Made by a program: the position numbers and the translations under genes
Notes under the pieces: generated by a model
What the model saw: the letters and a program-made list of their open reading frames with translations, nothing else
What the model was told of the DNA's origin: nothing
Database searches by the model: none
Source of the DNA: a virus
Strand: one strand, 5' to 3'
DNA length: 64,000 bases
IMG/VR virus record: IMGVR_UViG_3300027877_000005
Shown here: one piece after another, positions 10,664 through 62,147 of the stretch
Layout of the letters: the number at the start of each line of letters is the position of its first letter
How positions within the stretch are numbered: position 1 is the first letter of the stretch

Positions 10664-10664
10664 T

Positions 10665-10748
10665 ATGATAAATGAATGGTTATTAATTATCATTATAATA
10701 ATCTTTACAGCAGGATATTTAGTGGGAAAGGAAAATAAAGATGACTGA
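10665..10748 (+). CDS. 27-aa single-TM peptide
   Basis: MINEWLLIIIIIIFTAGYLVGKENKDD; coupled to both neighbours. Confidence 0.5.
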   Translation: MINEWLLIIIIIIFTAGYLVGKENKDD

Positions 10749-11732: not shown

Positions 11733-11733
11733 A

Positions 11734-11934
11734 ATGAATATTTATAAAGTAACCGTAGAATATTCTAAACAATCTGGTAGAGATATAGTCTTAGCTAAAA
11801 GTGTATATGAAAATGTTAGAATGTGTTTAGTTGCTGAAAATTATATACGCATATTAGAGAAGGGTAAATTAGAGATTAAAAAGATTTCATATGAAAGAAT
11901 TTGGTCAGTAAAGATTGAAAGGGAAATAGGATGA
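11734..11934 (+). CDS. Hypothetical protein
   Basis: 66-aa ORF coupled to its neighbours. Confidence 0.6.
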   Translation: MNIYKVTVEYSKQSGRDIVLAKSVYENVRMCLVAENYIRILEKGKLEIKKISYERIWSVKIEREIG

Positions 11935-12041
11935 TAACAATTCCTTTAGAACTTCTAGTTATGTTTATTGTATTTATTATATTCTGTATAGTAATGATGA
12001 TAGTATGGTTTATATTAGCTTTAATTATAAAAAAGATATGA
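11931..12041 (+). CDS. 36-aa hydrophobic membrane peptide (not in ORF track)
   Basis: MITIPLELLVMFIVFIIFCIVMMIVWFILALIIKKI; ATGA overlaps at both ends. Confidence 0.55.
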   Translation: MITIPLELLVMFIVFIIFCIVMMIVWFILALIIKKI

Positions 12042-40018: not shown

Positions 40019-40456
40019 TTATTCTTGCTCTTTTAGTGTTATAACTATCCTATTTATATTGGGTACTCCACGATATGAAACATCTTCTTGTAAATAAATT
40101 TTACTATCCACCATATAATGAACTGCATGTTCAACTGCATATAAATTTGTTGGATTATATTTTATTTGTACAAGTGCCTCTCCCTTTCTTATATACCCTC
40201 CCGCTACTCTCCAAGGTAAGTCAATCTCACCTATAGCTACATGTGCATTTACAATATAGCCTGAAGTAGTATTTATCCAATAAGTACCCCCACATGTTGG
40301 ACAAAATGGGTCAGTAGATAAATTAGAGACAGGGTTTAAACTACATACCGAACACGGAATTCCTGATACAGTAACAAGAATAGTTATGTCTCTTCCTATT
40401 GCATCTCTGATAGCATCAATAATTGTTGTTGTATTACTAGGCCAAAATATTGTCAT
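40019..40456 (-). CDS. Putative head-closure (stopper) protein with Cys motif
   Basis: CSVC...CPTCGGT insert; synteny after the adaptor. Confidence 0.55.
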   Translation of the reverse strand: MTIFWPSNTTTIIDAIRDAIGRDITILVTVSGIPCSVCSLNPVSNLSTDPFCPTCGGTYWINTTSGYIVNAHVAIGEIDLPWRVAGGYIRKGEALVQIKYNPTNLYAVEHAVHYMVDSKIYLQEDVSYRGVPNINRIVITLKEQE

Positions 40457-45356: not shown

Positions 45357-46874
45357 TTAGGCCTGTTTGCCGTTTTGATTACCTGAAGGTGCGCCAGGTG
45401 CTTTCTTTGGTTTTGGTGCAACGGTAGTTTTTCCAGGTACTGGACTACCAGGTACAATAGGAGCAGGAGTTGTGTCTTCTAACTCATAATCTTTTAATAA
45501 TTGTTGCTCTTCTTTTCTATATTCTAGTTCTTGTGATAAATCAAATCCATAAGATTCAGTAAATGATTTTCTAGACAAGTTACCAGTATCGTATAATTTT
45601 TGTACACCTTCGTAGAATAATCTTAATCCTAATAAATTTATAGGTTTAAATTTTATATCTGGTAAAGGACTTACCAAATTATTCTTTTCTTTTACTTCGT
45701 AATATATATGATTTATAATAGGTAATAAATCATCTCTAATAGTTTCCATTGTACTAGTAGGAGAAAGGGTAGAAATTTCTGGGTCACTTGTAAATGACCG
45801 TTCTGTTTCACCTGTGATTAATATTCTTGGAAATCCTAATGCTAGAATAATATCTTTGTTTACTGAATTATATTTACTATCATTCAATAGGGCTTCTACA
45901 TCAGGGAATATCCAATTTAATTCTACTGTATGGTTAGTGAATAGAGTAAATACCCTTTCTATATCATCCATACTAAATCCTTCTCTCCAATGAAACTTTG
46001 TTTCCAAATCATCTAACACATCTTGTTGGTCTTCCGTTAATGGGAACTCATCACTACCCGCTGTAACGTGCAAGATAGCACTAATTACTCTTGCAGCGAT
46101 AGAGTAATCCATTCTCAATAGATTTCTTTTGTGTTTGAATGATTCCAATCCTGGGTATAAATAAGGGATTGGATATTGTGAATCAGAAAGAATAGTTGAT
46201 TTCACAATAAGAGGATTGTCCAATAAGATTTTCTTTTCTCCAGCTACCACCTTTGCTACAAAATCAGGATATAGTTTTGCTATCTCCTGATATAATTCTT
46301 TGTCCACAGACCCATCATCGTATGTTCCCTTTGTTTGCAAGAACATTACTATATCATCAGGAATTTCTAAGAAATAAGATTCTTCGTCTGTGATGAAAGG
46401 TCTTTTGATTACTATATCTTGTGCATTTCTTAGCCACATCTTAGTTGGGTATAAAAGTGAATCCAATCTTTGAATTCCTTTTTCTCTCAACTGTTTTCTA
46501 TTAATAGTCTCTAATGTTATTTCTGGAACCACTAGACCAGTAGTTAAAAACTCTAGTGCTGCTTTTCTTAAGAATTTTATTACATCTCTTTTTAGAGATG
46601 AATAAATTTGATAATCAGTTTTAGAGATATTATTTTGTGGAATAATAATATCATTGATTGCCAATCCAACTATCTTTGTAACAACTGTAGTAGCGATTGG
46701 TTCATGTCTAAAAAAGAATCTACAGTCTTTTACAATTTTTTCAAAGTTATCATGGTCTTCAAATGAAATTTTATCTACTGAGTTAGAACCCCAAACACTA
46801 ACATAACTTCTATAACTAGACTGTGGCATAAAAAATGCTGCTTTTGCCAATTTTGTTTGTTTATTATTATCCAT
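45357..46874 (-). CDS. Portal protein
   Basis: ~505 aa directly after the terminase; GGAGG RBS before MDNNK; Pro/Lys tail. Confidence 0.8.
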   Translation of the reverse strand: MDNNKQTKLAKAAFFMPQSSYRSYVSVWGSNSVDKISFEDHDNFEKIVKDCRFFFRHEPIATTVVTKIVGLAINDIIIPQNNISKTDYQIYSSLKRDVIKFLRKAALEFLTTGLVVPEITLETINRKQLREKGIQRLDSLLYPTKMWLRNAQDIVIKRPFITDEESYFLEIPDDIVMFLQTKGTYDDGSVDKELYQEIAKLYPDFVAKVVAGEKKILLDNPLIVKSTILSDSQYPIPYLYPGLESFKHKRNLLRMDYSIAARVISAILHVTAGSDEFPLTEDQQDVLDDLETKFHWREGFSMDDIERVFTLFTNHTVELNWIFPDVEALLNDSKYNSVNKDIILALGFPRILITGETERSFTSDPEISTLSPTSTMETIRDDLLPIINHIYYEVKEKNNLVSPLPDIKFKPINLLGLRLFYEGVQKLYDTGNLSRKSFTESYGFDLSQELEYRKEEQQLLKDYELEDTTPAPIVPGSPVPGKTTVAPKPKKAPGAPSGNQNGKQA

Positions 46875-48429
46875 AAGAATAATTTCCTCCAACTACCCAT
46901 CTACTTTTAGCTAATGGTTTTTGTGCTTTGGAAAACAACATACCTACTACTAACATATAATAGGCAACCATAGCACAAAGCATAGCCGCAGTATTATGGT
47001 CTTCGCCTCTTTTACCTCCCTTTGGGGTCAATGTTTTATAAATAACTTCTCCGATTGGAGTTTTAGTATATGTCATTCTTTCAAGCTCTGTAACTAATTC
47101 TATATCTGTATGGGTATACACAATCTTATGAGAGTTAGTGTACTCTTGTAACAATGTCACACTATGAGGTTTCATTTTTGTTTTTATTTCCTCACCTTCT
47201 GAGTTCTCACCTAAACTAAGCCAAGAACCAAAGGCTACTGGGAATAATCTTTTCGTATAATTTTTATGAAGATATACTTCGTCTTCTAATAAATGTTGTA
47301 CCAATCCTTTTTCATTTCCTGTATCTATACCAATTACTTGAGGTCTATTGAATTTAGTATCTAGATAATCAATAATTTTTTCTTGCGTAGGATAAGCTAC
47401 TTTGTAAAAATTTATTCTTGCATGTTCTCTAATTATACCATTTTTCTCATAAAGTATAATGATTGAAGTGGGTTCCGTGTACCCCAAGTCTACTCCCATT
47501 ATAACTAAATCGTTAGCTGGTACTGGTGGAATAAGAGCCATTCTATTTATTATTTCACTATAAGAATAATCTATTCCAGAAAGACTTATCTTGTAGGTTG
47601 GATAAGTTTCTATTTCCATCAATCTTCTATCAAATACAGCAAATGTAGGAGAACCATGTCTTCCCAAAACCAAGTGAATATAATCTTCACTTTCATTCCC
47701 ACCGTATTGTTTTACATTTCTTTCTTCATCCTGTTCAGTATATCTAGGATTTTCATGAGCAGATGTTCTATGGTGAGAAAACTGGTCATTGACCTCATCT
47801 GCTAAATATAATACACAGTTTTCTCTAAGCCCTGTTGGTACTCCAGACACCCATAATTTATGGCTATCTTCCCACGAATTTAGAACAGGTTGGAGTTCTA
47901 ACCATGTTCCCCAAGGATAGTATCCAGCTTCATCTAGAATGATAATAGGTGTATGTTTACCTACAACATTAACACCTGTACCAGACTGTCCAGCGATAGC
48001 ACACACAAGTTGAGCAGTATTTAATAAAGTTATTGTATAAGTAGACGAATTGATACCACGTTTTGGTTCTATAAAATTCTTCAGAAATAAATTATTTCTT
48101 AAATACTTTATAAGATTATTAAATACTGGTTCAAGATGTGTCTTATTTGGTACTGTATACATTATGTATTCATTAGGGAAAAAATTATTAATCATTACCC
48201 ATAGAATATAATCAGTTAGAGATACTGTCTTCCCTACAGCACGACCACAGCAAAGAGATACATAGTTATTAAAATCTCCTAAGTATTCTTTCTGATAGGG
48301 CGTGTATTCAAAAACTTCTTGTTTATAAGTTAATGTTTCTATATTTCTATAGAACTCTCCGAACATAATTGGATGTCTAATGATTTCATATAGACACCAT
48401 TCTTCAGGAGTTATCTTCTCTTGTAACAT
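46867..48429 (-). CDS. terL: Terminase large subunit
   Basis: Walker A CGRAVGKT, Walker B IILDEA, nuclease MGVDLG and IGIDTG; GGAG RBS before ATG 48429. Confidence 0.9.
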   Translation of the reverse strand: MLQEKITPEEWCLYEIIRHPIMFGEFYRNIETLTYKQEVFEYTPYQKEYLGDFNNYVSLCCGRAVGKTVSLTDYILWVMINNFFPNEYIMYTVPNKTHLEPVFNNLIKYLRNNLFLKNFIEPKRGINSSTYTITLLNTAQLVCAIAGQSGTGVNVVGKHTPIIILDEAGYYPWGTWLELQPVLNSWEDSHKLWVSGVPTGLRENCVLYLADEVNDQFSHHRTSAHENPRYTEQDEERNVKQYGGNESEDYIHLVLGRHGSPTFAVFDRRLMEIETYPTYKISLSGIDYSYSEIINRMALIPPVPANDLVIMGVDLGYTEPTSIIILYEKNGIIREHARINFYKVAYPTQEKIIDYLDTKFNRPQVIGIDTGNEKGLVQHLLEDEVYLHKNYTKRLFPVAFGSWLSLGENSEGEEIKTKMKPHSVTLLQEYTNSHKIVYTHTDIELVTELERMTYTKTPIGEVIYKTLTPKGGKRGEDHNTAAMLCAMVAYYMLVVGMLFSKAQKPLAKSRWVVGGNYSYG

Positions 48430-49090
48430 CAAATGTTGCTCCATTGTAAGGCACAGTGAATTTTTCGTTAGGAGGTAAATCTCCCCACTTAGCAAGATAT
48501 CTTGCCTGTGCTAATCTAAATTTATGATGATGTAAATTTAATTCAAACGGTGTATACTTTTTCATTGTTCCACTATTCTCATGCATTACTTTACATCCTG
48601 CTATATCTTTTATATCATATCCTTTCAATCTCATTCTCCAATGGTAATCATTATCTTCAAAATAAGCATAGTGTGGAGATAGTGTTTCATCAAAATATCC
48701 TACATCATTGATTATTTTTCTAGGAAAACTCATACAGGCAAAGGATGTTGCTCCCTCTGCTGGATAGATTGAAAAGTTTTCATCATACCCTTCCATAAGT
48801 TTTTCAATAGAATCTGGATAGAATTCTATATCATCATTACTTATCAATATATGGTCTTTTACATTATGTAAAAACCAATTCCAACTCATGGCTACCCCCA
48901 AATTATACTTAGCTTTTATTAATGTAATTTTTGACTCAAGTTTTTGTGGTAGCATTTCCATAAATAATTTTGTTCCATTATCAATTATATAATAATTGAT
49001 AGGCTTTAGTGTCCCAGCTTCTGCTGATTCCAGACACTTTACTAATAAATCATACCTGTTTAATGTTGGTATACATAAATTTACTTCCAT
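48404..49090 (-). CDS. Glycosyltransferase family 2 (GT-A)
   Basis: CIPTLNR, IDNG, SNDD (DxD-like), YFEDNDY. Confidence 0.88.
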   Translation of the reverse strand: MEVNLCIPTLNRYDLLVKCLESAEAGTLKPINYYIIDNGTKLFMEMLPQKLESKITLIKAKYNLGVAMSWNWFLHNVKDHILISNDDIEFYPDSIEKLMEGYDENFSIYPAEGATSFACMSFPRKIINDVGYFDETLSPHYAYFEDNDYHWRMRLKGYDIKDIAGCKVMHENSGTMKKYTPFELNLHHHKFRLAQARYLAKWGDLPPNEKFTVPYNGATFDVTREDNS

Positions 49091-49100
49091 ATCACCCTTC

Positions 49101-49838
49101 CTACAATCCTAATATTTTTATTAAATCATTTACTGTTGGGTTTACAGGATAAAAATTAGTATCACTGTAAATCACATGTCTCATATCCCAATGAATCCCA
49201 TCATGTGGGGCAATCTTAGGAATATCAAATCCATTCGCTAGTGCTAATTGAGATGACATTAATCCTACAAATCCTTTAGATTTTGATATCCATGTTGTTG
49301 TTTCTAATAAATCCATTCCTGTTATATCTACACCATATCCTATATCATCATTATCTGCTCCAACAACATAACAAGTAATTGGACAATTAATTATAAAATC
49401 ACAGAATAATTTTTTGAATGATGTTTCTCCTCTTGGTGCTACAATAATATAAGGTTCACTATCAGTTTCAAAATCTGGATATTCGTATTCTACTTTTGCT
49501 GGAGTAGGCAAACCTGTAGATTCCATAATAAAATCTGGTATAGCTTTGTCTGGAACTGTTCTAAATCCCATATGATATGTCATATCATATAAACCTATAT
49601 CTACTGGAACTCTCCAAGGCTGTACTCCCATGTCCATTCTTTCTATTTGATAATTATCTGGCATATAGAATCCATATATATAACTCTGATATCCAAATAA
49701 TCTTTCTAAGGGTTTACAATATTTACTGGTATAAAAATCTGCTAATGCTTCACGCATTTGACAAACCTTTTTAATGGCTGGTAAAGCGTAAATGGCATCT
49801 CCTAATCTTCCTGGATGCGTACATGCTATTTTATTCAT
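49101..49838 (-). CDS. GT9-like glycosyltransferase
   Basis: HPGRLGDAIYALPAI and SKSKGFVGLMSSQLALA match heptosyltransferase-type motifs. Confidence 0.7.
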   Translation of the reverse strand: MNKIACTHPGRLGDAIYALPAIKKVCQMREALADFYTSKYCKPLERLFGYQSYIYGFYMPDNYQIERMDMGVQPWRVPVDIGLYDMTYHMGFRTVPDKAIPDFIMESTGLPTPAKVEYEYPDFETDSEPYIIVAPRGETSFKKLFCDFIINCPITCYVVGADNDDIGYGVDITGMDLLETTTWISKSKGFVGLMSSQLALANGFDIPKIAPHDGIHWDMRHVIYSDTNFYPVNPTVNDLIKILGL

Positions 49839-49847
49839 AACCTCTCC

Positions 49848-51131
49848 TTACATTCCATATAATAAATTTTTTGCAACTTCCCATCTATAATTCTGTATCC
49901 TTTCCTCTTGGTCTTTTGACAATGGTGTATCTAAAAGAATTTTTACTAATTCAATAGGCCATTGATACTTTACTGCAAAGAACCACCATTTGTGTAATCT
50001 ATTTATCTTATCAGCATCTGGAATATTCAATGGAGTATGCTCATAAAATGCCTGTGCTTGTGTATCTTCTGTTATCAATCCTTTATCTAAACAATACTTC
50101 CACAAATCTGTTCTAGGGAATGGTTGAAATATAGAAGCCCACGAATCTGTGGGGTTTAATTTCATATTCATTTCCAAGGTTTTCAAAGCATCTTCCAATG
50201 GATTTTCTACAGGCAACCCAATCATATTCTGTAATCTAACTTTTATTCCACGCTCTTCACAAGTCTTAGTTGCATCACTTATTTGTGAATTTGTAATAAA
50301 CCCACGTCTTAATAATTTTTGTGTTTCTGGTACCGCAGATTCTAATGCTATATTAAGAAATACACAGCCACTATTAGCCAACATATCTATTTTATAACCA
50401 TCAATACTATTTGCTCTAACAGAACCACAATATTGTAGCTTAGTTTGTTTTATTAGTTTACAAAATTCTTCTAGCCATTCATAACTAGCTGCTAAATCAT
50501 CATCATTGAAATAAACTAATTCTAGTCCATAGTCTTTCTTTACTTCTAGAATTTCTTCTATCATCAATTCAGGAGATACTCTTTGGAAGAAATCTTTTTT
50601 CTGGTCTTGGTATAATTTCTTGAATAAGTGATTAAAACAATATGTACAACTATAAAGACAATATCTTCCTGCTATAAATCTTTTCATTCTAGCCTTGCCA
50701 AACTCATCATACTTATATTGAATTTGTCTATAAGGATGAGCCAAAGAATTTACATCTGGAAGGTTCCCTCTGATTAATTTCTTTCCTTGATAAACTCCAT
50801 TTACTATATCAAGAATTACACTCTCTCCTGGGCCTATCACAACATAATCTATGTTACTATTCTTCAATCCAGATTCTGGAAAGAAGGTAAAGTGAGGCCC
50901 ACCCACTACCGAAACAAAATCTCTTTTGCTTTTTAATTCTGCTAATTTATTAAAAAACCATTCATGTTCTCCTGACATAACAGAGCACATGATGTAGTCT
51001 GCTTTTGGTATTACATCTCTATGTGCTTGTACTAAGTCTACATCATGTCCAGCATCTTTCAATATTCTGGCTAAGTACATGATACCTAATTTATCTGTTC
51101 TTAATCTATTCTCCAGAAATACTACTTTCAT
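49848..51131 (-). CDS. Cobalamin-binding radical SAM enzyme (class B methyltransferase-like)
   Basis: B12 domain VVGGPHFT...GPGE; CLYSCTYC (CxxxCxxC); DDD; NMIGLP; start MKVVFLE. Confidence 0.88.
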   Translation of the reverse strand: MKVVFLENRLRTDKLGIMYLARILKDAGHDVDLVQAHRDVIPKADYIMCSVMSGEHEWFFNKLAELKSKRDFVSVVGGPHFTFFPESGLKNSNIDYVVIGPGESVILDIVNGVYQGKKLIRGNLPDVNSLAHPYRQIQYKYDEFGKARMKRFIAGRYCLYSCTYCFNHLFKKLYQDQKKDFFQRVSPELMIEEILEVKKDYGLELVYFNDDDLAASYEWLEEFCKLIKQTKLQYCGSVRANSIDGYKIDMLANSGCVFLNIALESAVPETQKLLRRGFITNSQISDATKTCEERGIKVRLQNMIGLPVENPLEDALKTLEMNMKLNPTDSWASIFQPFPRTDLWKYCLDKGLITEDTQAQAFYEHTPLNIPDADKINRLHKWWFFAVKYQWPIELVKILLDTPLSKDQEERIQNYRWEVAKNLLYGM

Positions 51132-51795
51132 CTGTACCCTTCCTTTCCAACAAGATATTAAAATACGTGTTCCCATCAGGCCCATATATAACTATTTCAT
51201 AGTTTGGTAGATATTCTTTTATAAATTCTAAAACATAACTATCATAATAATTATGAAAGGCTATTAATAAAAATCTAGCTTCTTTTAGTATAGTAGAATT
51301 TTTAATAACGTTGTATTCAGACCCTTCTATATCAATTTTTATTAAGTCTGCTGGAGAGTTTATTACATTTTCTAACTCTTCCAATTTAAATATCTTGTTC
51401 TCATATTTTTCAAATCTAAATCCTTGTGCAGTATAGTGGGTTATTGGTTCAATAGTATACCCCAATGGATTTTTATCCCCAGTTCCAAATACTTCTGATT
51501 CTTTTAGACCATAGTAGATTCCCCAATTTAAAGGTACTATTTTGTATAAATAATCTTCTAGATTCTTTAGTAACATATCAAAATTTTCTGAATCTGGTTC
51601 AAAGCAGTAAATCTTTTCAATGGTTGGAACTTGTAGTAACCACATAGAACTTAGTCCGCTAGATGCCCCAATATCAACCACAGTTTTTATTTCACTTTTT
51701 TTTAATAACTCTATTATCCCTTGCCAAAATGGGTTATACATGAAATCATCATAAACCATTCTATCTATAACTCTATTAACTTTCAAATCTATCAT
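51106..51795 (-). CDS. FkbM-family methyltransferase
   Basis: VDIGASSG, FEPD, KIDIEGSE. Confidence 0.9.
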   Translation of the reverse strand: MIDLKVNRVIDRMVYDDFMYNPFWQGIIELLKKSEIKTVVDIGASSGLSSMWLLQVPTIEKIYCFEPDSENFDMLLKNLEDYLYKIVPLNWGIYYGLKESEVFGTGDKNPLGYTIEPITHYTAQGFRFEKYENKIFKLEELENVINSPADLIKIDIEGSEYNVIKNSTILKEARFLLIAFHNYYDSYVLEFIKEYLPNYEIVIYGPDGNTYFNILLERKGTDESSISGE

Positions 51796-52702
51796 ATAAT
51801 TTCCTGTATTCTATTAATGCGTTATTAGTTTTTTCTGGTAGATATTTTACATATTGTTTAATATTTTGAAGCAAGGTATCTGTTGTCACATATCCAAAAA
51901 CTTCATCTTCTAAATTCTTTTTTATAGACTGTTCATTTCTTTTTTGGTAAACTGTAGGGGGCATGAATAATGGTCTAGTGTCCAAAAGATATTGAGCAAT
52001 ATAACCACCCCAAATATCATCTGACCTCCCAACAAAGGGAAGAACCATGTAATAAGGTAAAGCTTCTCTAGCAATAAAAGTATTCTGGCTGTTGAATGGA
52101 ATAAAATTATTAGATGTAAATGGAACATCTACTTTTAATTCTAAATCCCTTGGCATATGTATCAATCTACAAATAGCATCAACATCAGGGTCTCCATCCC
52201 ACAAATCAGCTTGAAATAAAATTTTTCTCTTTTGTATTCCCCTGTGTACTATTGGTCTAATCTTTGTTAGATATGAAATAGGAAATCCACGGTGCCATAA
52301 TTCACTATGATTAGTTACCTGTAATGGTTCAAAGACATTAATATCTAGACTATCAAAAACATGTACATCTATTTCTTGCCCTACTCTTACATCTTTTCCC
52401 CAATTTTCATAAGGAATATTATCATCATCTATGCTGGCAACAACATCTGCCCCAAGCTCATAGGCATGTATAAAGCCTATATTTCTTCTCATGATACAAT
52501 TCCATCCTATTGCATCACTCAATCTTGGATATAAATCTTCTTGTATATCTGGATGTAAATATGTAGCATTTATGTCTTTATAAGAATTATGTGGAGTTTT
52601 TATATCTCCAACTATAATCATATCCCAACCTTCCATGTGTGAATATTTTAATGTAGCTTCTGTTGGTTCTTGTATCGTTGTTGTTACAATAAATTTTTTC
52701 AT
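51776..52702 (-). CDS. STELLO/DUF288-like putative glycosyltransferase
   Basis: IVTTTIQ, VGDIKTP, RRNIGF, IDDDN, HRGFP, DGDPDVDAI, PFNSQNT, RSDDIWGGY. Confidence 0.8.
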   Translation of the reverse strand: MKKFIVTTTIQEPTEATLKYSHMEGWDMIIVGDIKTPHNSYKDINATYLHPDIQEDLYPRLSDAIGWNCIMRRNIGFIHAYELGADVVASIDDDNIPYENWGKDVRVGQEIDVHVFDSLDINVFEPLQVTNHSELWHRGFPISYLTKIRPIVHRGIQKRKILFQADLWDGDPDVDAICRLIHMPRDLELKVDVPFTSNNFIPFNSQNTFIAREALPYYMVLPFVGRSDDIWGGYIAQYLLDTRPLFMPPTVYQKRNEQSIKKNLEDEVFGYVTTDTLLQNIKQYVKYLPEKTNNALIEYRKLYDRFES

Positions 52703-53544
52703 AGTTCATGTATCTCCAATCCCGCATCAATATGTCCCCAAGTCTCTGGATTTGTAGTTTCTTTCATTGTAAAAGCTTCGTCAATATTATTTATTTTCCC
52801 GCTACCCCCAAATCCTGCATCATGTCCAATATGCCAAATGGGTAGACTCCAATCAACCGCTATGTTATATCCTACTAAAGTTGCTTTCATTTGAACATTA
52901 CTGTCCATGTATGCCCTTCCAGTAAATCTTTCCTCAAATCCACGCATGGCATACCAAATATCTTTATGTGCAATTTGAAAATCTCCACAATTACTTACCA
53001 AAGAAAATCTATCATTCCAATGTACACTTGTAGGAGGTTGTTGAGAATATCTGGACTCAAGCTGTTCTAATGCTGTTATATAAATATCTGGTCTTGTTCT
53101 GTCTCCCAAAGGTCTTAAATCATATAAAGAAATTGACCTCATACCTGTGGTAAAAAATGTACTAGTATTTATTACTCTTTCAAGATGTTTTCTTTGTGGA
53201 GGAATAATATCTATATTTGCTGAGATTAAAAAATCAGTACTAAGTCTTCGTAATCCTACATTTCTTGCTTGAGTTTCACATACTGCTTGTGCTTGTGGGT
53301 CATTCCATGTCCATTCCCTAGCTTGTTCTTGTGTTACCCTTACCCAACGTATTTTTTCTTTATGTACTAAATCATCTTTTATTTCTTCAATCATAGTTGG
53401 CTTGTCATTATCTGTATTCCAATCTACATATACAATTTCATCCAATACTTCAGCCATTGAATTAAGACAATAGGTAGCTCTTTCTAATAATAAATTTCCA
53501 TAATTATCATTTCTACTAATTATAGATGCTCCATACGTTGTCAT
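52699..53544 (-). CDS. Putative GT-A fold glycosyltransferase
   Basis: SRNDNYG, YVDWN, RNVGLRR, ANIDII, GDFQ, GRAYMDSN. Confidence 0.7.
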   Translation of the reverse strand: MTTYGASIISRNDNYGNLLLERATYCLNSMAEVLDEIVYVDWNTDNDKPTMIEEIKDDLVHKEKIRWVRVTQEQAREWTWNDPQAQAVCETQARNVGLRRLSTDFLISANIDIIPPQRKHLERVINTSTFFTTGMRSISLYDLRPLGDRTRPDIYITALEQLESRYSQQPPTSVHWNDRFSLVSNCGDFQIAHKDIWYAMRGFEERFTGRAYMDSNVQMKATLVGYNIAVDWSLPIWHIGHDAGFGGSGKINNIDEAFTMKETTNPETWGHIDAGLEIHEL

Positions 53545-54527
53545 ACACACTTCTCCGTTAAGTCATAACGCACCTGTTGTTCTATCCAATCATAAGTTCT
53601 TTCTAATCCTGACTCTAATGGAATGACAGGTTCCCAATGTAAAATTTCTTTTACTTTAGTATTATCTGAATTTCTTCCTCTAACTCCCTGAGGCCCGTCA
53701 AGATTATAAACCTTATTTATATCTATTTTTGCTTTAGTAGCAATTATATCTGCTAATTCATCAATTGTTATCATCCTATCACTGCCTATATTCAAAGGTT
53801 CGTGATAATCACTTAACATTAATTTATGAATTCCTCTAACAATATCATCTATATAACAAAATGAACGTGTTTGTTTCCCATCCCCCCAAATTTCAATATC
53901 TGATTCTTGCATAAATTTTGCTGTAGCTATCTTTCTACATAAAGCAGCAGGAGCTTTTTCTCTACCACCTGTCCATGTTCCTTGAGGCCCATATACATTG
54001 TGGAATCTAGCTATGTATGTCTGAGTTGCTGTTTCTCTACCAATGTATTGACAAAACTTTTCCATTGTCAATTTCTCCCAACCATAAGCATCTTGGGGTT
54101 GAGCAGGATAAGCATCAGATTCTTTTAGTGGTACAACATCTGGTTTATCTTGTAAAAATTCTGGATATACACATGCTGAAGAAGAAAAGAAATATTTCTT
54201 TACTCCATTATCTACTGCACTTTGTAGTGTATTTAGATTTATTAAAAGATTGTTATGCAAAATTAGAGAATGATTTCTGGAAATAAATCCCATCCCGCCC
54301 ATGTCTGCTGCTAATCCAAAAACCCAATCTATATTTTCTGTTGCCCATTGTGCATTGTGTATGTCAAGCAAAGATACTTTGTGAAATTCATTTGCAGAAG
54401 TTCTTTCATATTTTGGATACTTAGTATCTACTCCACGAACCCAATAGCCCAATTGAGTTAAATAATTTGTAAGGTGGTATCCAATAAATCCACCCGCACC
54501 TGTTACTAATACTCTTTCTGTTCTCAT
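53541..54527 (-). CDS. NAD-dependent epimerase, GDP-mannose 3,5-epimerase-like
   Basis: GAGGFIG, LAADMGGMGFI, SSACVYP, YGWEK (YxxxK), GREKAPAALCRK, GVRGRNSDN. Confidence 0.9.
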   Translation of the reverse strand: MRTERVLVTGAGGFIGYHLTNYLTQLGYWVRGVDTKYPKYERTSANEFHKVSLLDIHNAQWATENIDWVFGLAADMGGMGFISRNHSLILHNNLLINLNTLQSAVDNGVKKYFFSSSACVYPEFLQDKPDVVPLKESDAYPAQPQDAYGWEKLTMEKFCQYIGRETATQTYIARFHNVYGPQGTWTGGREKAPAALCRKIATAKFMQESDIEIWGDGKQTRSFCYIDDIVRGIHKLMLSDYHEPLNIGSDRMITIDELADIIATKAKIDINKVYNLDGPQGVRGRNSDNTKVKEILHWEPVIPLESGLERTYDWIEQQVRYDLTEKCV

Positions 54528-54784
54528 TTTTTCCCTTCCTTATCAAAATAAGTGTAATAAGTTTTTGATACAGTTGAAATGTCTTCATCTCCTAGTAATG
54601 AATCAATTGCTTTGATTAGAGCAGACCGTCTAGCATTCATGATTTGTGCTCTTTCTGCTGCTTCTAATCTTTTTTCATTTGATAAATCTTTATTCATAAT
54701 ATCTTCTTGAGCAAACCAACACCGCACAGAAGTTGTAATTAATTCATCAATTATTATCCCAATACTCTTTCTAGATATGTCCAT
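54524..54784 (-). CDS. Small helical protein (DUF4254-like, tentative)
   Basis: SIG..IDEL...W..QE...N.RR..LI..ID pattern seen in glycan loci. Confidence 0.5.
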   Translation of the reverse strand: MDISRKSIGIIIDELITTSVRCWFAQEDIMNKDLSNEKRLEAAERAQIMNARRSALIKAIDSLLGDEDISTVSKTYYTYFDKEGKK

Positions 54785-56019
54785 TTTACTACCTCCTGTC
54801 CTTCATCACCTTCCATGTAGTAAATAACAGGCTCTGGTAATGGTACAATAAATGCTCCCCCATACTTCAAGAACTTAATATTTCTAGCTATAAAATCATC
54901 TATGAAATGCCAAGGTAATACAAATAGCATATCTGGATGTTCTTTAAATACTTCATCTTCCGAAGCTATAGGAATATTAGAAGAGATAGTATACTTTCCA
55001 AACTTATCTGGATTTACATCTGCAATAATTGGAATCAACTTTTTAGTTATCCCAAAGTATTGAAGTAAAGTATTTCCTTTTGTTGATGCACCCATTCCAT
55101 AAATTCTTATGCCGGCAAATTCTGCTCTAGTTAGAAAATCTAACACAGTTCTTTTTACTTTATTTATTCTTTCCGAAAATGATTTCATTGGGTCATCAAA
55201 ACTATCTAGATATGCCCTTTCATCAGCTAAAGAATTTAAAACGCTATCTTGGGTACAGAAGTAATCATTTTTGCAAGCAAATACTCTTATACTTCCACCA
55301 TTTACTTTGTTATAAGAAACCTTAAAAACTTTCAATCCATGTTTATCTAGTAGATTTACGATGTCAGTTAGTTTATAATATTCTAAGTGTTCGTGACAAA
55401 TATTATCAAAAGCATTTATTCTCAGCATTGAAATCAAATCTGTAAATTGAATTACAAATATGCCATCATCTGCTAAAACATTAGCTATATCTTCTACAAA
55501 TTTATTTGGGTCTGGTAAATCGTAGAACATGGCAATAGCAGTAACTACCCTTGCTTTATTCCAATAATAAGAATCTTTACTAAAATAATCATTAACAAAG
55601 AAACTACAGTTTTTAGTAGCCTTCTCTGCCAAGTTTAGTGCTGGGTCATATCCCAATTTGAATGTAATTTTATTCTTGTATAGTGTAAACATAACACCAT
55701 CATTACATCCAATATCTAATAATAAATCTTCATCATTAATCTTTATAGTATTCTCAATTTCAGTTACAATATCCTGCAAAGATTTAACCATTGATGGATT
55801 GATAGCTGATTGATAGAAATAAGTTCTATACATTTCATCTAAATTAACTGTGTGTTTAAGCTGAACAAGACCACAAGATTTGCATTCCATTAATACTAAC
55901 GGAACTGCTTCTCCTTCAGTCTTGTTCACAAAGTTAGATGGATATATACTTCCTAAATTAAGAACCTCTCTCATACTTTCCCCACAAATCCTACATACAT
56001 ACTGTTCCTTGTGTGCCAT
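54754..56019 (-). CDS. NDP-hexose C-methyltransferase (TylCIII/EryBIII/NovU family)
   Basis: CRICG...CKSCGLVQL Zn site, DIGCNDG, CHEHLEYY, NGGSIRV, GASTKGNTLL, LPWHF. Confidence 0.9.
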   Translation of the reverse strand: MAHKEQYVCRICGESMREVLNLGSIYPSNFVNKTEGEAVPLVLMECKSCGLVQLKHTVNLDEMYRTYFYQSAINPSMVKSLQDIVTEIENTIKINDEDLLLDIGCNDGVMFTLYKNKITFKLGYDPALNLAEKATKNCSFFVNDYFSKDSYYWNKARVVTAIAMFYDLPDPNKFVEDIANVLADDGIFVIQFTDLISMLRINAFDNICHEHLEYYKLTDIVNLLDKHGLKVFKVSYNKVNGGSIRVFACKNDYFCTQDSVLNSLADERAYLDSFDDPMKSFSERINKVKRTVLDFLTRAEFAGIRIYGMGASTKGNTLLQYFGITKKLIPIIADVNPDKFGKYTISSNIPIASEDEVFKEHPDMLFVLPWHFIDDFIARNIKFLKYGGAFIVPLPEPVIYYMEGDEGQEVVKWTYLERVLG

Positions 56020-56033: not shown

Positions 56034-56363
56034 TTATTGTTCTTTTGGTGTAGTTACTGTAAATCCAAACTCCGCTGAGTGGAATCTTTGTGTTTCATTT
56101 TCTAATAATACTTGGACTAAATAATACCCCGCTGATGATAAAAGTCCAGATGGTAAAGAAGCTTGTAAATAAGATTCACCTGATGCAACCATCACTGCAT
56201 TTATATTAACTACTATTCCATCTGGTTTCTTAATGATAAATTGTTTAGTTGTGTAAGGACTCAAATCTGCGGGAGATGTTTGACCTGTCAATTCATCATA
56301 TTCTTTTACTAAAACTTCTAGGGTATGTCCATAATCTGTTTTGAATATTATGGTATGACTCAT
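56034..56363 (-). CDS. BppU N-terminal-like adaptor domain protein
   Basis: DLS...IKKPDG...AGYYLVQV...F.V pattern. Confidence 0.55.
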   Translation of the reverse strand: MSHTIIFKTDYGHTLEVLVKEYDELTGQTSPADLSPYTTKQFIIKKPDGIVVNINAVMVASGESYLQASLPSGLLSSAGYYLVQVLLENETQRFHSAEFGFTVTTPKEQ

Positions 56364-59300
56364 AATTTTACAATTCCTTTTATATATTTGTTTATAATTA
56401 CTATATAACTAGTTCCAGTTTCGATATTAGCATCAAAAGCTAGATGGTTATTCAATTCTGCTTCAGACATAATAAACTTATTTATATCTGTTTCAAATAC
56501 TGCATGAGTATTTATTACAGTTTCACATTCAATCTTGTGAGCGTCAGGTGGTGCTATACCAGCTACATAAGCTTTTGTAGAACTGCTTACAGCCTCAGCA
56601 CCATAAACATACGCATGGATATAAGAAATATTAGCGGTATGTCCTTGTACGAAGGCACTTATTCTAGAAGTAGTGCTTGAAATTCCTACCACATAAGCAG
56701 ATTTATTACTGCTTACTATTACTCCACCATGTACATATGCAGGAATTTGTGAAACTGCTGTACTTTGACCAGCTACATAAGCCCCTATATTAGAACTTAT
56801 TACAGCTTTACCTGAAGTGTAAGCTGGTACATTACTACTTGTCTTTATTATACCATAAGTGTACGCATTTGTCAAGGATGAAGCGATAGATTTTCCTGCT
56901 AAATATGCAGAAATTCTGGAATTTGTAGAGATTTTACCAGAAGTATAGGCAAATTTAGAAGTTTTTTCTACAATTCCACCAGCTACATATGCTGATTTAG
57001 AAGAGCTTGTATCTGCTTTACCATGAGTATAAGCACTAATAGAACTTTCATTACCAGCATATCCACTAACAAAGGCATGGATTGAAGAAGAACTAGTTGC
57101 TATACCTGTTGTAAATGCTGGTATACTATCTGCAATATCTTGTCTACCGTGTACATATGCTGGAATAGAATCTACAGCACCAGCCTGTCCAGATACATAT
57201 GCATGTTGTGATGTTATATCGTAACTTTGTCCTTTTGTAAAGGCATGGATAGAACTGGTATCAACAGAATATCCATTTACAATGGATAGAACTGGTATCA
57301 ACAGAATATCCATTTACAAAGGCGTGTATAGAACCTTGTAATGTAGAAGTACCTGATGTATATGCTGATGTAGAGTCTACAGCATCTTGCTTACCTTTTG
57401 TATATGCAGATATATTATCTTGGGCTGTAGAAATTCCTGCTACATATGCTGACTTGGTTGCTTCAGCAGTTGTTTTACCAGCTACAAATGCAGAATGAGA
57501 ATCGCTTAATGTTTCTTGTCCACGAACATATGCATGTACATTTGAAGATACAGATATATATCCTAGTACTGGTATTCCAACTGTAACCCATTCAATTTCA
57601 AATCCATATGCCCCTTGTACAAAAGCATGAATTAGACTATTAGCATAGTCTAAACCTTTTGTATAAGCAGGAATGGATGCAATTCCTGGTGCAAACCCAA
57701 AGGTGTATGCTGGTTGTGAATCACTTGCTATATCTTGACCAGAAGTAAATGCAGACTTATTTGCTATTCCACTATATTGACCTCTAGTGTAAGCATTTAT
57801 ATTTCCAACTTGTGATGCTTGCCCCTTTACAAAAGCTAATTGATTGTCACTTGCATCAAATTTACCTTGTACAAAAGCTTGTTGATTATCACTTATAATC
57901 AATCCACCAGAAGTGTATGCAGTGTGAGAACCACTTGCTATACTTGAACCTCTAGTATATGCAATCTGGTTATCTGATACTACTAATCCACCAGCCACAT
58001 AAGCGGTCTTAGAAGCACTTGTAGATATTTGTCCACGTACATATGCTGATTGATTATCACTTACGATTAGTCCACCACTTACATATGCATAGATAGATGA
58101 TATTTCAGTACTTCTACCCGCAGTATAAGCATGGATATTAGCTATGCCAGGAGAGAATCCACTTACATAAGCGTGGATAGATGCTGTTGCACCTGATATA
58201 CCACCTACGTAGGCATTTATAGAATCTGTTGTTATGATTCCTCCTGCTACATAGGCATGTAGTAAAGAAATCATAGTGTCTTTACCAGACACGTAAGCTT
58301 TTATAGAACCTGTAGCACCATACTGACCACTTGTAAATGCAGACTTAGATGCAACGAATGTACTTACACCACTTGTAAATGCATTTTGATTATCAGATGT
58401 AGAAATCTGACCTTTGGTGAAAGCAAATTGTGAATCGCTTGTATCTGATGAACCTCTTACATATGCAAATTTAGAAGCAGATGCAAAGATTGGAACACCT
58501 TCTACAAACGCAGAATGTGAATCCGATACTAAGCTTTTACCATGTGTGTATGCAGATTGTGAATCTGAGGATGTAGATAATCCTTTGACATATGCATGAA
58601 TTACACTACTTGAGCTACTTATACCACTTGTATAAGCTAGTTGATTGTCTATACCATATGCTTGCCCTTTAGTGTAAGCATAGATTGAATGTGCTATTAT
58701 GCTCTTACCACTTGTGTAAGCATTGATAGAGTCCGAAGCTATGATTGCAGTACCTTCTACATAGGCATTCTTATTTGCAGAAGCAATTGATTGACCTTTT
58801 ACATACGCTGGTTGGTTATCAACAATTGAATTTTTACCAGCTACAAAAGCATAGATTGAATCTAAGGCTGTATCTTTACCAGATACAAATGCATTTATAG
58901 AATCACTTTGGCTTGCTGAACCTTTTACGAAAGCATGGATATTAGATGATACTGATTGTTGGGTTATTACAGGTAATCCTACAGTAATCCATTCAATCTC
59001 AAAACCATAAGCTCCTTCTACAAATGCTGTCTTCGATGCAATAACTTTTTCTACACCAAAAGTATAAGCTGTTATAGAATCATTTACAGAAGTTTGACCT
59101 CTTACATATGCTGATTTATATCCTGATAAACTGGTTTGTCCTCTTACATATGCCCCTTGGTTATCACTTGCAAAAGATTGTCCTCTAGTGTAGGCATAAA
59201 TTGAATTACTTCCTATACTCTGTCCCTTAGTATAGGCTGATTGATTATCACTTGCTGATTGTTCTGATGGGAATCCTTCTGTATAAGCGTGTATTAAATT

Positions 59301-62147
59301 GCTTGTAGAAATTTGTCCTTTTGTATATGCAAGTTGATTATCTGATGCTACACTTTGACCACTAGTGTAAGCTAATTGATTATCTGATGCACTACTTCTT
59401 CCAGAAACATAAGCGTGTATGAGTGTTGAAGTACTAATCTTACCACTAGTATATGCTAATTGATTGTCAACTATAGAAGTTTGACCACTAGTATAAGCCG
59501 ATTGTGAATCTGCTATACCACTAGCACCTTTTGTATAGGCTGATTTATTAGCAGAAGTTAATGATTGACCGTTGGTGAAAGCTGGTTGATTATCAACTGT
59601 TGAGGTTTGCCCTTTGGTATAAGCAGCCTGATTATCTGTAATACCAGTAGCACCTCTAGTGTAGGCTGGTTGATTATCTAAAGTAGATAATTGACCTCTG
59701 GTATATGCTAATTGATTATCTGATGTACTATCCTTACCTTGTGTAAATGCACCTTTAGAAGCTGAAGCACCATAAGAACCATTTGTGTAAGCATGTTTAT
59801 TGCTACTAGATGATAGAACACCGTTTGTGTAGGCATGTTTACTACTTAGTACCCATGGTACCCATTCAACTATAATATTAGCATTTGTTGTAAGTATTTT
59901 TTCTGTGGATTTAGTTTCAACTATTATGTTAGCAGTAGTAACATCTAGTTTGTCTGATACTTTATCTTCTACTAATATACTAACTTCAGTAGTTCTTATA
60001 CCATGTGCAGATGTAAACGCATGTATCCAGCTTGTCTTAGAGCCTTCTACACCAGAAGTATATGCATGGATTAAAGAAGATTTTGTTCCAGATTGCCCTT
60101 CAGTATAAGCTGGTTGATTGTCGGTAGCTTGAGGAGCACCTTTAGTATATGCAGACTGACTATCCGAAGCTGGTATCCATTCTCCCTCCATAGCTGTATA
60201 AGCATGGATAGAACTTCTAACAAAAGTTTCTTGTAATATTAGATAGTTATAATAAAGATTTCCAGTATCATCTGTAAATACATAGCTAATTCTACCATAT
60301 TCATTTTCAAAATGGTAGGCATATTCTGGAGCAATAGAAGTAAATGTTCCTGTATCAAGAGTTGCTTCTGGATACCAATCTCCACTATCAGCATATTTTG
60401 TATAAATTATATCTCTACTAGTATTGTCAATATAGAAAAGATGTCTATATCCACGTTTATATGCTGCCCCAGGCCAATAACTCCAAGCATTAATGTAGCC
60501 ATTTGCAGTACCAATTCTGGTAAGATTTTCATCCATATAATATGGAGGGCCTGACATACCATGTGTTCTATAAATATAAGTATTACCATCAGGAGAGGCA
60601 ACTATTGATTTTTCTCTGTGTATATATGCCGATGATGGATAAGTTACTTCATCTGCCCACACACCAGTATCTAAATTTCTAGTTCTTGTTGCAGTATAAT
60701 AAGAAGAATCATTATATCCAACTATACATTTGTTTTGGTAAACAAGCATCCCAGGATAGTGCCAGTTTTTAGAAACATTTGCTGGTACATTTTCTGGAGA
60801 AAGCCAAGACCCACTAACTTTATTAGTGTATCTAATTATTCTATAACCACTAACTTGGTCAGTGTAAATTACATGTGGTTTTTCATTAGCATCAAGACTG
60901 ATAAAACATTGTCTGTATGTTGGAAGACCTGTAAGATTAGCTGCCTCTTCCCATGTTCCCCAAGAATCATTAGAAGTATCAAGTATGTTATAGGCTATGT
61001 CTCTTGTAGCTAAAGCATTAGCAGAACTTAGGACATGAATTTTATCATGTGCATCAATAGCAATATTGAAATAAGCAATTGTAGAACTACCATGAATAGT
61101 TGTTACTGAAACCGAAGAAAGTGCAGTCCAAGTTGCACCATCGTTTGAAGATTTATCTATTTGAATATTATTACTATCAGATGATTTAGAGAATACATAT
61201 CTAACCCCCATCTTGGTTGTAACAACATATGCTGGGGCGGCTGATGATGCACGTATTAATGATTTAGTACCTTTTACATAAGCAGACTTAGAAGAAGATG
61301 TACTAGAAGTCCCAGCTACATAAGCAGATTGATTATCAATTGCTTTTCCTTCCTCATATCCATTTACATAAGCATGTTTGCTTGAAGATGCCGAACTACC
61401 AGTATAAGATTGTATTTGTAAGGAGACAAAAGGTATTGCAGGGTCAACTGGATAAGGCCCTTGAATAAAAGCATGTTTACTTGATGATGCTACTTGTGCT
61501 CCATATACATATCCAGATTGATTATCTGAACCTGAATATGCATCAAAGAAAGATGCAGCAATAATACGCCAGTAATCAGCACCAGCGTTTACAAAGTTAA
61601 CTGCAATTGTTCCAGCAGAACCACTATCTAAATCATATTCTGATGCAAATGTCCAGTTACCAGGGTCTGAGCTATGGACTAGAGTATAGTTAGCACCTTG
61701 TGTAGATGCAGTCCTGTAGTCATCTCCTTGTGCAGCTACTATTAATAAATTGGGAAGAGTAGTTACAATATTTACAGATGGATTTGCTGTACTACCACCA
61801 CCACTAATTTGACTATGATATACAACTAGGTCTTTAGTAGTAGTATATGATGATGGATTTAATGCTATAGAATCGCCATCTGCGTTTGGAAGACTAAAAT
61901 TATATGTACCATTATCTGGATTTATTAAATACCATAGTTCAATAGCACAATCATTTCCTGTCCCAGCCTCTGCTACTAAGGTCATCTCCTTTCCGTTATA
62001 AGTTGGTGGAGTAACAGTAGTTCTTCCAGCTACATCTTCAATGTAAACAGAAAGAATTAGTAAATCTCCGTTACATGTATAACTGTAAGTAACAGGATTT
62101 GAAGTGCTATATGTACTTAGTGCTTTATTGTCTAACGAAAAAGACAT
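56360..62147 (-). CDS. Giant Ser-rich 14-aa-repeat virion protein (~1916 aa), split by a 37-bp duplication
   Basis: Repeat xxSx[NS][QIK]xA[YF][TV]xGxx in both ORFs; Asp-box SNDGATW in a propeller-like domain; removing one duplicate gives 1917 codons. Confidence 0.8.
57245..57318. repeat. Exact 37-bp tandem duplication
   Basis: 57245-57281 identical to 57282-57318. Confidence 0.95.

Follow-up and report, generated by a model that had tools for sequence, protein, structure and literature searches.

What does a bacteriophage do with a run of sugar-modifying enzymes placed directly in front of the gene for its large terminase (terL), and onto which molecule would the resulting glycan be transferred? 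This question is raised by an uncultured phage represented by a 64,000-nt stretch of DNA, IMGVR_UViG_3300027877_000005 (hereafter the window, meaning the whole stretch), in which nine co-oriented open reading frames (ORFs) fill positions 48404–56019 of the minus strand with no opposite-strand gene between them. Comparative analysis of this cluster and its relatives points to a glycan slot upstream of terL, dedicated and recombining, which lies in the packaging/head module between conserved transferases. The enzymes which occupy this slot in the window probably make a GDP-L-hexofuranose donor from host GDP-mannose, judging from their sequences, and the cluster as a whole may assemble and transfer a rare, methylated sugar. 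We tentatively favor, at a little below an even chance, the view that the cluster is a phage-encoded glycan-tailoring and transfer cassette in a variable slot and that its acceptors are the proteins of the virion.

The cluster is bordered by tail-fibre-like genes on its upstream side and by terL on its downstream side, and terL is followed on the same strand by portal, scaffold-like, capsid-like, GT4-like, tape-measure, and tail-tip genes, the identity of the portal being backed by PHROGs. Junctions within the cluster are overlaps of 4–31 nt or gaps of at most 14 nt (table 1). These coordinates agree with an earlier sequence-only reading of the window, which had described nine co-oriented genes with overlapping or abutting ends between the fibre-like genes and terL and had placed them inside the virion operon. 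No terminator-like site was found at the junctions among the nine genes or at the junction of the cluster with terL, and the sole terminator-like site inside the cluster is a weak hairpin (50138–50153) within the coding sequence of the B12-binding radical S-adenosylmethionine (SAM) enzyme. The island is predicted to be translationally coupled to terL. The number of promoter-like sites equaled the shuffled expectation, no RNA run contained the cluster sequence, and no tRNA or Rfam match was detected anywhere in the window. A perfect TTGACA-17-TATAAT site with an upstream TG was observed on the minus strand at 56847–56875, in the repeat-coding part of the giant fibre-like gene and about 480 nt upstream of the gene for a 109-residue protein. 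The site may drive the glycan/terL block from within the gene, or it may simply result from the codons of the repeat, and it was not used as evidence.

The cluster is covered by Logan contigs from runs under three studies of freshwater and wetland metagenomes, and each of them could be the sample from which the window derives. Long Logan pieces over the cluster are nearly all at least 99% alike, with few base differences, indicating a genuine locus that persists unchanged in nature. Two runs from wetland or freshwater samples contain the phage at a depth of about 40x. When 50,697 phage records were searched at the DNA and protein levels, no close relative emerged, and matches were limited to GT75 and GDP-mannose 3,5-epimerase (GME) homologues of the type found in cyanophage S-T4 and one distant terL.

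To place the cluster among its relatives, we used a terL profile search of IMG/VR, in which 129 stretches encoded a relative; 80 loci with 50–86% identity were kept. The genes upstream of terL were mapped by jackhmmer searches from the window proteins, by clustering, and by Pfam analysis of cluster representatives, and the counts given here for the slot refer to the 48 loci in which 3 kb or more of sequence precede terL. At least three recognized sugar genes were present upstream of terL in 41 of these loci and a recognized transferase in 43, in a total of 35 distinct gene combinations. The repertoire includes the C-methyltransferase (CMT) and DUF4254-like genes, several short-chain dehydrogenases/reductases (SDRs), DegT aminotransferase, GNAT, one or two FkbM genes, class I methyltransferases, the radical SAM enzyme, GT2, GT9, GT25, nucleotidyltransferase, SIS isomerase, ATP-grasp, MptE/Maf-like (below cut-off), and sulfotransferase-like genes. 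A GT2-family gene stands immediately before terL in 29 of the 48 loci and is the most conserved member of the island, and the GT4-like gene lies approximately 5.0–6.0 kb downstream of terL on the same strand in 23 of the 27 loci that reach that far.

The combination found in the window recurs in close relatives (L013 and L028, terL 83–84% identical) and, reordered, in distant ones (L002 and L058, 55–57%). Intermediate relatives hold other sets, which indicates that modules are exchanged. In L087, whose portal is only 39% identical, the cassette is located between the portal and the scaffold/major-capsid homologues. Comparison of identities among the window, L002, and L003 gave no signal of a structural gene being transferred together with the cassette. 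The lineage comes from fresh water and wetlands, and its phages are apparently virulent, with genomes of about 96 kb; its complete relative, G002, is 96,486 bp long and has terminal repeats. Neither Phage_integrase nor Resolvase was matched in G002 or in four other records, and no relative of terL was detected in 185,579 prokaryotic species genomes.

Several other features of the slot were observed. In 24 relatives (e.g., L002:530-1192 and L056:3652-4332), the first gene of the cassette, often just past a divergent junction, is a conserved ORF of about 220–230 residues whose C-terminal part has a zinc-ribbon-like motif. Neither Pfam nor PHROGs identified it, the window has no homologue, and it could be a small terminase or a regulator. 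A conserved protein of 284–323 residues without a profile match almost always precedes the terL-adjacent GT2 gene (L033:5852-6730 and 25 other loci, e.g., L002:8207-9082); the window's clade lacks it, and the gene for a GT9-fold protein occupies its position. The cassettes of L041/L040 and of L056/L055/L053 contain an MptE/Maf-like gene (PF01973, 28.7 bits, below cut-off) and a nucleotidyltransferase gene, and such sets resemble the flagellin nonulosonic-acid glycosylation sets, which are protein directed.

The SDR of the window appears to be a true GME orthologue. Residues 5–321 align with the plant structures 2c59 and 8sg0 (E 6e-100), with an identity to plant GME of about 55% as estimated by eye from the alignment and not by a tool, and the protein also matches phrog_540 (E 5e-73). 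The equivalents of the catalytic residues Cys145, Tyr174, Lys178, and Lys217 as well as the NAD-binding GxxGxxG motif are all identical.

The next candidate is a 308-residue protein (P0002), which the sequence-only reading had called a STELLO-like glycosyltransferase. STELLO (PF03385) was not supported, as no Pfam match was obtained at E 0.01 and PF03385 is found on only 10–15% of members in the nearest Atlas clusters. P0002 is a GT75-like homologue and a probable mutase, according to profile, model, and residues. A profile of 34 homologues matched MtdL (7xpr, 7yua) at E 1.5e-30, and P0002 alone did so at 1.9e-19. Foldseek searches with its AlphaFold2 (AF2) model (pLDDT 95) gave MtdL with TMq 0.76–0.81 (E 1e-21) and rice UAM2 with 0.62, all other listed chains, mostly GT-A transferases, being at 0.32–0.47. 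By this match to MtdL and UAM2, the modeled fold comprises a GT-A domain together with the GT75-specific core and helical domains. The DDD(N) motif, Arg159, Asp195, Ser228, Gln229, Arg257, and Asp260 of MtdL correspond to D92–D94, R138, D173, S205, Q206, R226, and D229 of P0002. These aligned residues are invariant across 34 family members, and the equivalent of Arg289 is also kept.

MtdL is a GT75 nucleoside diphosphate (NDP)-pyranose mutase that converts GDP-L-galactopyranose to GDP-L-galactofuranose, and Hyg20 acts likewise on GDP-L-fucose (PMC9937993). The predicted partnership of P0002 with GME follows the same logic: the GT75-like gene is paired with a true GME, whose product is the substrate of such a mutase, and a donor of the GDP-L-galactofuranose type is therefore predicted. 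In the A201A pathway, GME reportedly feeds MtdL (Zhu et al. 2017 are said to have described this). The P0002 family has 3,835 members, which are labeled ‘hypothetical protein’ and are common in aquatic viral metagenomes and in cyanophages; it may be read as a GT75/MtdL-like family consistently paired with GME. We found no paper tying GT75 to phage sugar pathways.

GME and GT75 occurred together in all six contexts sampled outside the lineage (S-T4, L087, L088, L089, L090, and the P0064 contig). The metagenomic ones among them (L087–L090 and the P0064 contig) were picked solely via the GT75 homologue, and co-occurrence was checked by tblastn in S-T4 and L087–L090, the epimerase of the P0064 contig being a 328-residue gene identified by its Pfam Epimerase domain only. 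Within the lineage, true GME orthologues (47–73% identity, SSAC motif) are confined to cassettes with the GT75/radical SAM module, and every cassette with that module also has GME. Several SDRs beside CMT in other cassettes had been labeled as GME by jackhmmer; these labels were rejected, as the proteins show only about 20% identity and lack the GME motifs.

A third enzyme of the cluster is a 421-residue CMT, in which Methyltransf_13, _23, and _14 (PF08421 45.4, PF13489 58.1, and PF08484 143.5 bits) all exceed their cut-offs. It aligns end to end with MtmC (E 1e-47) and TcaB9 (1e-37) in the PDB, and the three-domain architecture is present: a zinc-binding N-domain (CxxC...CxxC motif at residues 9–12 and 46–49), a SAM methyltransferase domain, and a C-terminal domain. 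Bruender and Holden reportedly identified Tyr76, His181, Tyr222, Glu224, and His225 as active-site residues of TcaB9. The equivalents of Tyr76, Glu224, and His225 are kept in the window protein, and His181 is replaced by Asp and Tyr222 by Cys. Enzymes of this family act adjacent to a 4-keto group. Sister cassettes place a different SDR beside CMT, whereas the window's clade does not.

Next to CMT is an 86-residue ORF which falls just short of PF14063 (26.8 bits vs. a cut-off of 27); 16 of 19 aligned relatives match this family (best E 7.5e-8). Jackhmmer detected 33 DUF4254-like ORFs (26 distinct sequences) in related loci, with CMT alongside or not, and the protein is a near-constant companion of sugar cassettes. 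In L016:6077-6862 and L020:6056-6847, the DUF4254-like segment forms the C-terminal part of a 261–263-residue protein with a Cys-rich N-terminal region.

Two further enzymes would add methyl groups. The FkbM-family methyltransferase scores above cut-off with both TIGR01444 (59.2 bits; cut-off 37.7) and PF05050 (30.2 bits; cut-off 22.7) and matches phrog_8156. The radical SAM enzyme has an N-terminal B12-binding domain (PF02310, 53.5 bits) followed by PF04055 (56.2 bits), both above cut-off, and a CxxxCxxC motif at residues 176–183; all NCBIfam equivalogs were far under their cut-offs. Homologues with 62–68% identity are present in the same module of L002 and L087, and the set GT-A, GT75, methyltransferase, radical SAM, and GME recurs as a module in L002, L058, and L087.

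The glycosyltransferases are more divergent. For the GT-A protein (P0001), profile searches gave no Pfam, NCBIfam, or PHROG match, and it is the Atlas fold and feature match, with the model resembling viral GT2/7C clusters (TM 0.85–0.88, feature score 0.99), that points to a GT-A glycosyltransferase. In L002, L087, and L089, a homologue is found ahead of the GT75 gene. The compact P0003 likewise had no Pfam match, PF01075 included, and its family profile matched no PDB sequence. VIA-align of the whole P0003 model gave Z values of 18.7 with WaaF, 18.0 with a Veillonella GT9, 17.6 with WaaC, and 16.9 with TibC, unrelated GT-B folds being at or below 11.7; TibC was the top Foldseek match by E-value, and Atlas placed the protein near viral GT9 clusters (TM 0.80). 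The model thus indicates a GT9-type GT-B fold. In three relatives (L022:7661-9061, L026:7927-9363, and L065:1845-3239), a 464–478-residue protein has the GT9-fold domain at its N-terminal end, fused to a second domain. The GT2 protein next to terL matches phrog_29879 (E 1e-31); PDB sequence searches with the GT2 and GT9-like proteins returned nothing useful. In the GT4-like protein, Pfam GT1-group domains are under cut-off (20 bits).

Eight of the nine families named in the sequence-only reading (CMT, DUF4254-like, GME, GT-A, FkbM, B12 radical SAM, GT9-like, and GT2) were borne out by profiles or folds. Its count of four glycosyltransferases plus a GT4 needs revision: the GT4-like gene is there, outside the cluster, and the cluster itself would hold three transferases and a mutase because the supposed STELLO-like transferase is the GT75/MtdL-like homologue.

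Table 1. Predicted genes of the glycan cluster and selected neighbors in the window, listed from upstream to downstream
Feature	Length	Position	Strand	Basis or remark	Junction with next gene downstream
Giant Ser/Thr-rich repeat fibre-like protein	1916-aa single frame once one duplicate copy is removed	56360..62147	minus		
BppU_N-like protein (g109)	109 aa	56034..56363	minus	weak tail-fibre N-terminal domain likeness	14-nt gap; GGAG-type ribosome-binding site
NDP-hexose C-methyltransferase (CMT; TylC3/TcaB9/MtmC family)	421 aa	54754..56019	minus	Pfam and PDB matches	31-nt overlap
Small DUF4254-like protein	86 aa	54524..54784	minus	PF14063 near cut-off	4-nt overlap
GDP-mannose 3,5-epimerase (GME) orthologue	328 aa	53541..54527	minus	plant GME structures, phrog_540	4–10 nt overlap
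GT-A fold glycosyltransferase (viral GT2/Glyco_transf_7C-like, P0001)	283 aa	52699..53550	minus	likely start ATG 53544	4-nt overlap
GT75/MtdL-like NDP-pyranose mutase homologue (P0002)	308 aa	51776..52702	minus	profile and AF2 model	20-nt overlap
FkbM-family SAM methyltransferase	229 aa	51106..51795	minus	profiles above cut-off	~26-nt overlap if the radical SAM start is Met19
B12-binding radical SAM enzyme (class B)	445-aa ORF	49848..51185	minus	likely start Met19 (~51131)	9-nt gap
Compact GT9-fold glycosyltransferase (P0003)	245 aa	49101..49838	minus	AF2 model pLDDT 96	10-nt gap
GT2 glycosyltransferase abutting terL	228 aa	48404..49090	minus	PF00535 42.7 bits	~23-nt overlap
Large terminase (terL), right-hand anchor of the island		46867..48495	minus	phrog_2 E 1.4e-18; likely start near 48426	
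GT4-like (GT-B) glycosyltransferase		40456..41661	minus	phrog_2170 E 8e-36	

No 19-residue window in any of the nine cluster proteins reached membrane-like hydropathy, and neither GtrA/GtrB-type nor other membrane transferases were found among them. All nine are predicted to be soluble, and the chemistry should thus be cytoplasmic. The analysis shows which genes are present, their catalytic residues, their operon structure, and a position that is conserved while its content varies. The following scheme can be proposed on top of this, in which we infer what sugars are made, in what sequence the reactions run, and what accepts the glycan. The host would provide GDP-D-mannose, which the GME orthologue would convert to GDP-L-galactose (and GDP-L-gulose). 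The GT75/MtdL-like enzyme may then contract the ring to give a furanose donor of the GDP-L-galactofuranose type, and the TylC3-type CMT may put a branch methyl on a host-derived NDP-4-keto sugar. The GT-A, GT9-fold, and terL-adjacent GT2 enzymes, together with the GT4-like enzyme encoded in the core of the genome, would assemble a short oligosaccharide, to which FkbM and the B12 radical SAM enzyme might add further methyls. The most likely acceptors would be proteins of the virion itself, with glycosylation taking place late in infection, and cassette swapping among relatives would result in a strain-specific glycan type.

We favor virion proteins as the acceptor because the cassette keeps its position in the head module at two different insertion points and is coupled to terL, because the core GT4-like gene lies among head and tail genes and all enzymes are predicted to be soluble, and because G002 has no integrase and terL has no relatives in the prokaryotic species genomes. 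Which virion protein would be modified is a separate matter. The sequence-only reading had proposed a search of viromes for this gene order linked to terL and Ser-rich fibres. The linkage to terL was found, but that to the fibre does not extend beyond the close clade: homologues of the giant fibre exist only in close relatives such as G006, and neither L002/G001, with a cassette of this type, nor the complete G002 has one. The giant fibre was thus rejected as an obligate or general acceptor, there being no homologue in G001 or G002, and it is possible that it serves as acceptor in the window's clade only.

Several observations weigh against virion glycosylation or against the proposed chemistry. 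Late expression is predicted from gene position. The capsid-like protein has no Ser/Thr-rich tail, and no such tail was found on the other structural proteins examined. A block in L089 (a Logan contig of 97,301 bp), at 3531–9410, comprises GT2, CMT, DUF4254, GT-A, GT75, GME, and GT9, that is, seven of the nine window genes with 31–60% identity (lowest for the DUF4254-like gene), suggesting that the cassette moves between phages as a unit; it is located between RecU/SSB and MT-A70/N6_N4 DNA methylase genes. The islands of L090 and S-T4 adjoin replication or auxiliary metabolic genes. These three positions imply that location in the head module is not a general property of the gene set.

On the chemical side, P0002 has Gln253 at the position of His287 of MtdL, Ile70 at that of Asp87, and Gln258 at that of His292, and both Gln253 and Gln258 are nearly invariant within the viral family. 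In MtdL, Arg159 is the nucleophilic or autoglycosylated residue and His287 an Mn ligand, the D87N mutant is inactive, and the inactive AtRGP5 has lost His287 (PMC9937993). The two residues of the CMT sugar pocket that differ from TcaB9 belong here as well. Moreover, Pfam and NCBIfam searches found neither a 4,6-dehydratase nor a second SDR in the window's cluster. Its clade lacks a phage-encoded 4-keto source or reductase for CMT, and both the keto sugar and the reductase would need to come from the host. No nucleotidyltransferase is present in the cluster either. The earlier proposal that the phage supplies its own nucleotide-sugar synthesis therefore holds for tailoring but not for synthesis from scratch, the pathway drawing on host GDP-mannose and 4-keto sugars.

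Part of this evidence would suit a different target. The cassette might remodel host envelope glycans during infection (the lipopolysaccharide (LPS)/lipo-oligosaccharide core or another cytoplasmic glycoconjugate), which could block superinfection or keep progeny off cell debris, its content then tracking host or competitor diversity. The GT9, GT25, GT2, SIS (GmhA-like), and nucleotidyltransferase genes of sister cassettes amount to an LPS-core toolkit, and the LPS-core pathway uses soluble enzymes and needs no Wzx or Wzy; both points count against the virion as target. In addition, homologous islands of cyanophages have been read in the literature as cell-surface modification genes, and the homologous genes of L089, L090, and S-T4 lie outside structural modules. 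In the lineage of the window, however, the island is predicted to be coupled to terL and lies between virion genes, the GT4-like gene is fixed among head and tail genes, and no GtrA/GtrB-like or other membrane proteins are encoded. Classical lysogenic conversion is itself unlikely, with no integrase and no terL relative in species genomes. On the whole, we consider envelope remodeling unlikely.

A second alternative, which appears improbable, is glycan hypermodification of the phage DNA by the transferases as a defense against restriction, known from T-even, RB69, and DLP3-type phages; cassette variability would then reflect an arms race with host nucleases. Pyle et al. 2024 reportedly describe diverse phage DNA glycans. 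The L089 cassette adjoins DNA methylase and replication genes, and the position of terL beside the cassette means that modification could be timed with packaging. Phage DNA glycans are diverse and involve several transferases as well as sugar-nucleotide synthesis, and the known routes require a thymidylate-synthase homologue for the hydroxylated base (10.1101/2025.06.16.659550). Thymidylat_synt (PF00303) was absent from G002 and from five partial relatives (including G001), with positive controls detected and the window itself not scanned. Furthermore, the folds that could be placed (GT9, GT-A, GT75 mutase) resemble families with sugar or protein acceptors, although no search was aimed at T4-type DNA glucosyltransferases.

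Still less probable is a role in producing a diffusible, glycosylated small molecule akin to nucleoside or aminoglycoside antibiotics. The pathways to these are the best-known setting of GME, the GT75 mutase, C-methyltransferases, and B12 radical SAM enzymes; MtdL and Hyg20, the only bacterial GT75 enzymes to have been characterized, act in those for A201A and hygromycin (PMC9937993). The nearest solved relatives of CMT are antibiotic-sugar enzymes, and in a cyanophage paper comparable genes were interpreted as ‘antibiotic synthesis genes’. However, no aglycone-forming, resistance, export, or membrane-protein genes lie in or beside the cluster, and its content varies like that of a glycan locus, unlike a fixed metabolite pathway.

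The 109-residue protein directly upstream of the cluster scores under cut-off with PF10651 (17.4 bits) and matches phrog_257 and phrog_1125 at E about 3e-3; jackhmmer detected 14 homologous ORFs, mostly directly upstream of the cassette. The giant gene is split into ORFs of 1628 and 317 residues by a perfect 37-nt tandem duplication (57245–57318). Similarly, an 85-nt tandem duplication at 43075–43249 (copies 98% identical) splits the capsid-like gene into ORFs of 185 and 161 residues, which both match phrog_16565, the second also matching phrog_29 weakly. The joined capsid-like form is an open frame of 306 residues and is seen in three other runs, L002, and L006. Logan contigs of three runs have neither duplication; both are assembly artefacts or minor variants. 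No frame-breaking tandem duplication was found in the glycan cluster. At the other end of the window, GC content is 25–27% in positions 1–12000, a plus-strand operon, and 31–46% in 12001–64000, with opposite GC skew, and the highest GC of the window is found in the boundary region at 12–17 kb.

Parts of the proposed virion glycosylation have precedents. The mycobacteriophages Che8, Corndog, and Myrna reportedly O-glycosylate their virions (capsid and tail-tube proteins) via soluble phage glycosyltransferases, sometimes with a methyltransferase, a finding attributed to Freeman et al. 2023. To our knowledge, no other tailed phages have been proven to have the function proposed here. The likeness lies in phage-encoded soluble glycosyltransferases and a methyltransferase, which in the window are predicted from the genes. 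The window's island differs in that it would also tailor nucleotide sugars (GME, GT75 mutase, CMT, and B12 radical SAM enzyme) and in that it occupies a fixed slot upstream of terL with contents that vary strongly among relatives.

The GT9-type transferases are relevant to the acceptor. TibC attaches sugar to serine residues in a beta-helical, repeat-rich protein, and it does so in the cytoplasm, a parallel to the idea of a Ser-rich fibre as acceptor. P0003 shares the fold of TibC/AAH, WaaC, and WaaF (Z 17–19) at only 12–16% identity and is much shorter, lacking the extra N-terminal region of TibC, to whose residues 96–389 it aligns. With WaaF, WaaC, and TibC within 2 Z units of each other, the fold match cannot separate a protein from a lipid acceptor.

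Virus-encoded synthesis of the sugars themselves is known from chlorovirus PBCV-1 and mimivirus, in which virus-encoded nucleotide-sugar enzymes and transferases/methyltransferases build unusual methylated virion glycans in the cytoplasm. As in the window, both enzyme sets are encoded by the virus; these are eukaryotic giant viruses with unrelated enzymes and sugars. For the furanose branch, the closest likeness is to the A201A and hygromycin A pathways (MtdL, Hyg20): P0002 shares the MtdL fold (TMq ~0.8), most of the probed residues, and a GME-type partner. It differs in its low identity to MtdL (about 24%) and in the His-to-Gln and Asp-to-Ile replacements given above, and its setting is a phage glycan island instead of an actinomycete antibiotic cluster.

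T4-like cyanophages (S-T4, S-SCSM2R, and P-SSM2) also have islands of sugar/LPS-like genes. In S-T4, GME (42%) and GT75-like (53%) homologues are found within an island of epimerase, methyltransferase, heptose-pathway, and glycosyltransferase genes, and in S-SCSM2R, according to the cyanophage paper, glycosyltransferases occur with DegT-like and radical SAM genes. The S-T4 island, however, lies beside hli and ferredoxin genes and not in the packaging/head module, and it has neither the CMT and DUF4254 core nor a fixed slot beside terL. The sequence-only reading had regarded the supply of nucleotide sugars as going beyond glycosyltransferase-only systems. As a novelty this cannot be maintained, since cyanophages such as S-T4 have islands with epimerase, sugar-activation, and glycosyltransferase genes. 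Virion glycosylation in mycobacteriophages is established and sugar-synthesis islands in cyanophages have been described. What appears to be new here is the probable GT75/MtdL identity of the 3,835-member viral family with its strict GME pairing, as well as the C-methyl and B12 radical SAM chemistry and the hypervariable slot beside terL across a large lineage.

A more specific form of the virion reading is that this is a recombining ‘glycotype’ locus beside terL, comparable with O-antigen loci, in which a conserved priming transferase (the GT4-like and/or the terL-adjacent GT2 enzyme) is combined with swappable tailoring modules to yield a strain-specific virion glycan. In the window, this glycan would contain L-galactofuranose, made via a very large and hitherto unrecognized viral branch of GT75, and C-methyl branches. 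Such a locus is conceivable, though we hold it to be doubtful.

Whatever the target, the pairing of GT75/MtdL-like proteins with GME predicts that phages make donors of the GDP-L-galactofuranose type. Should the particle carry the glycan, the surface sugars of environmental phages would vary in the way that O-antigens do in bacteria, which would have a bearing on adsorption, stability, grazing, immune recognition, and the definition of phage ‘strains’. If the glycotype reading is true, virus particles would vary their surfaces in a serotype-like manner, and the route to GDP-L-hexofuranose would be the first one in a virus.

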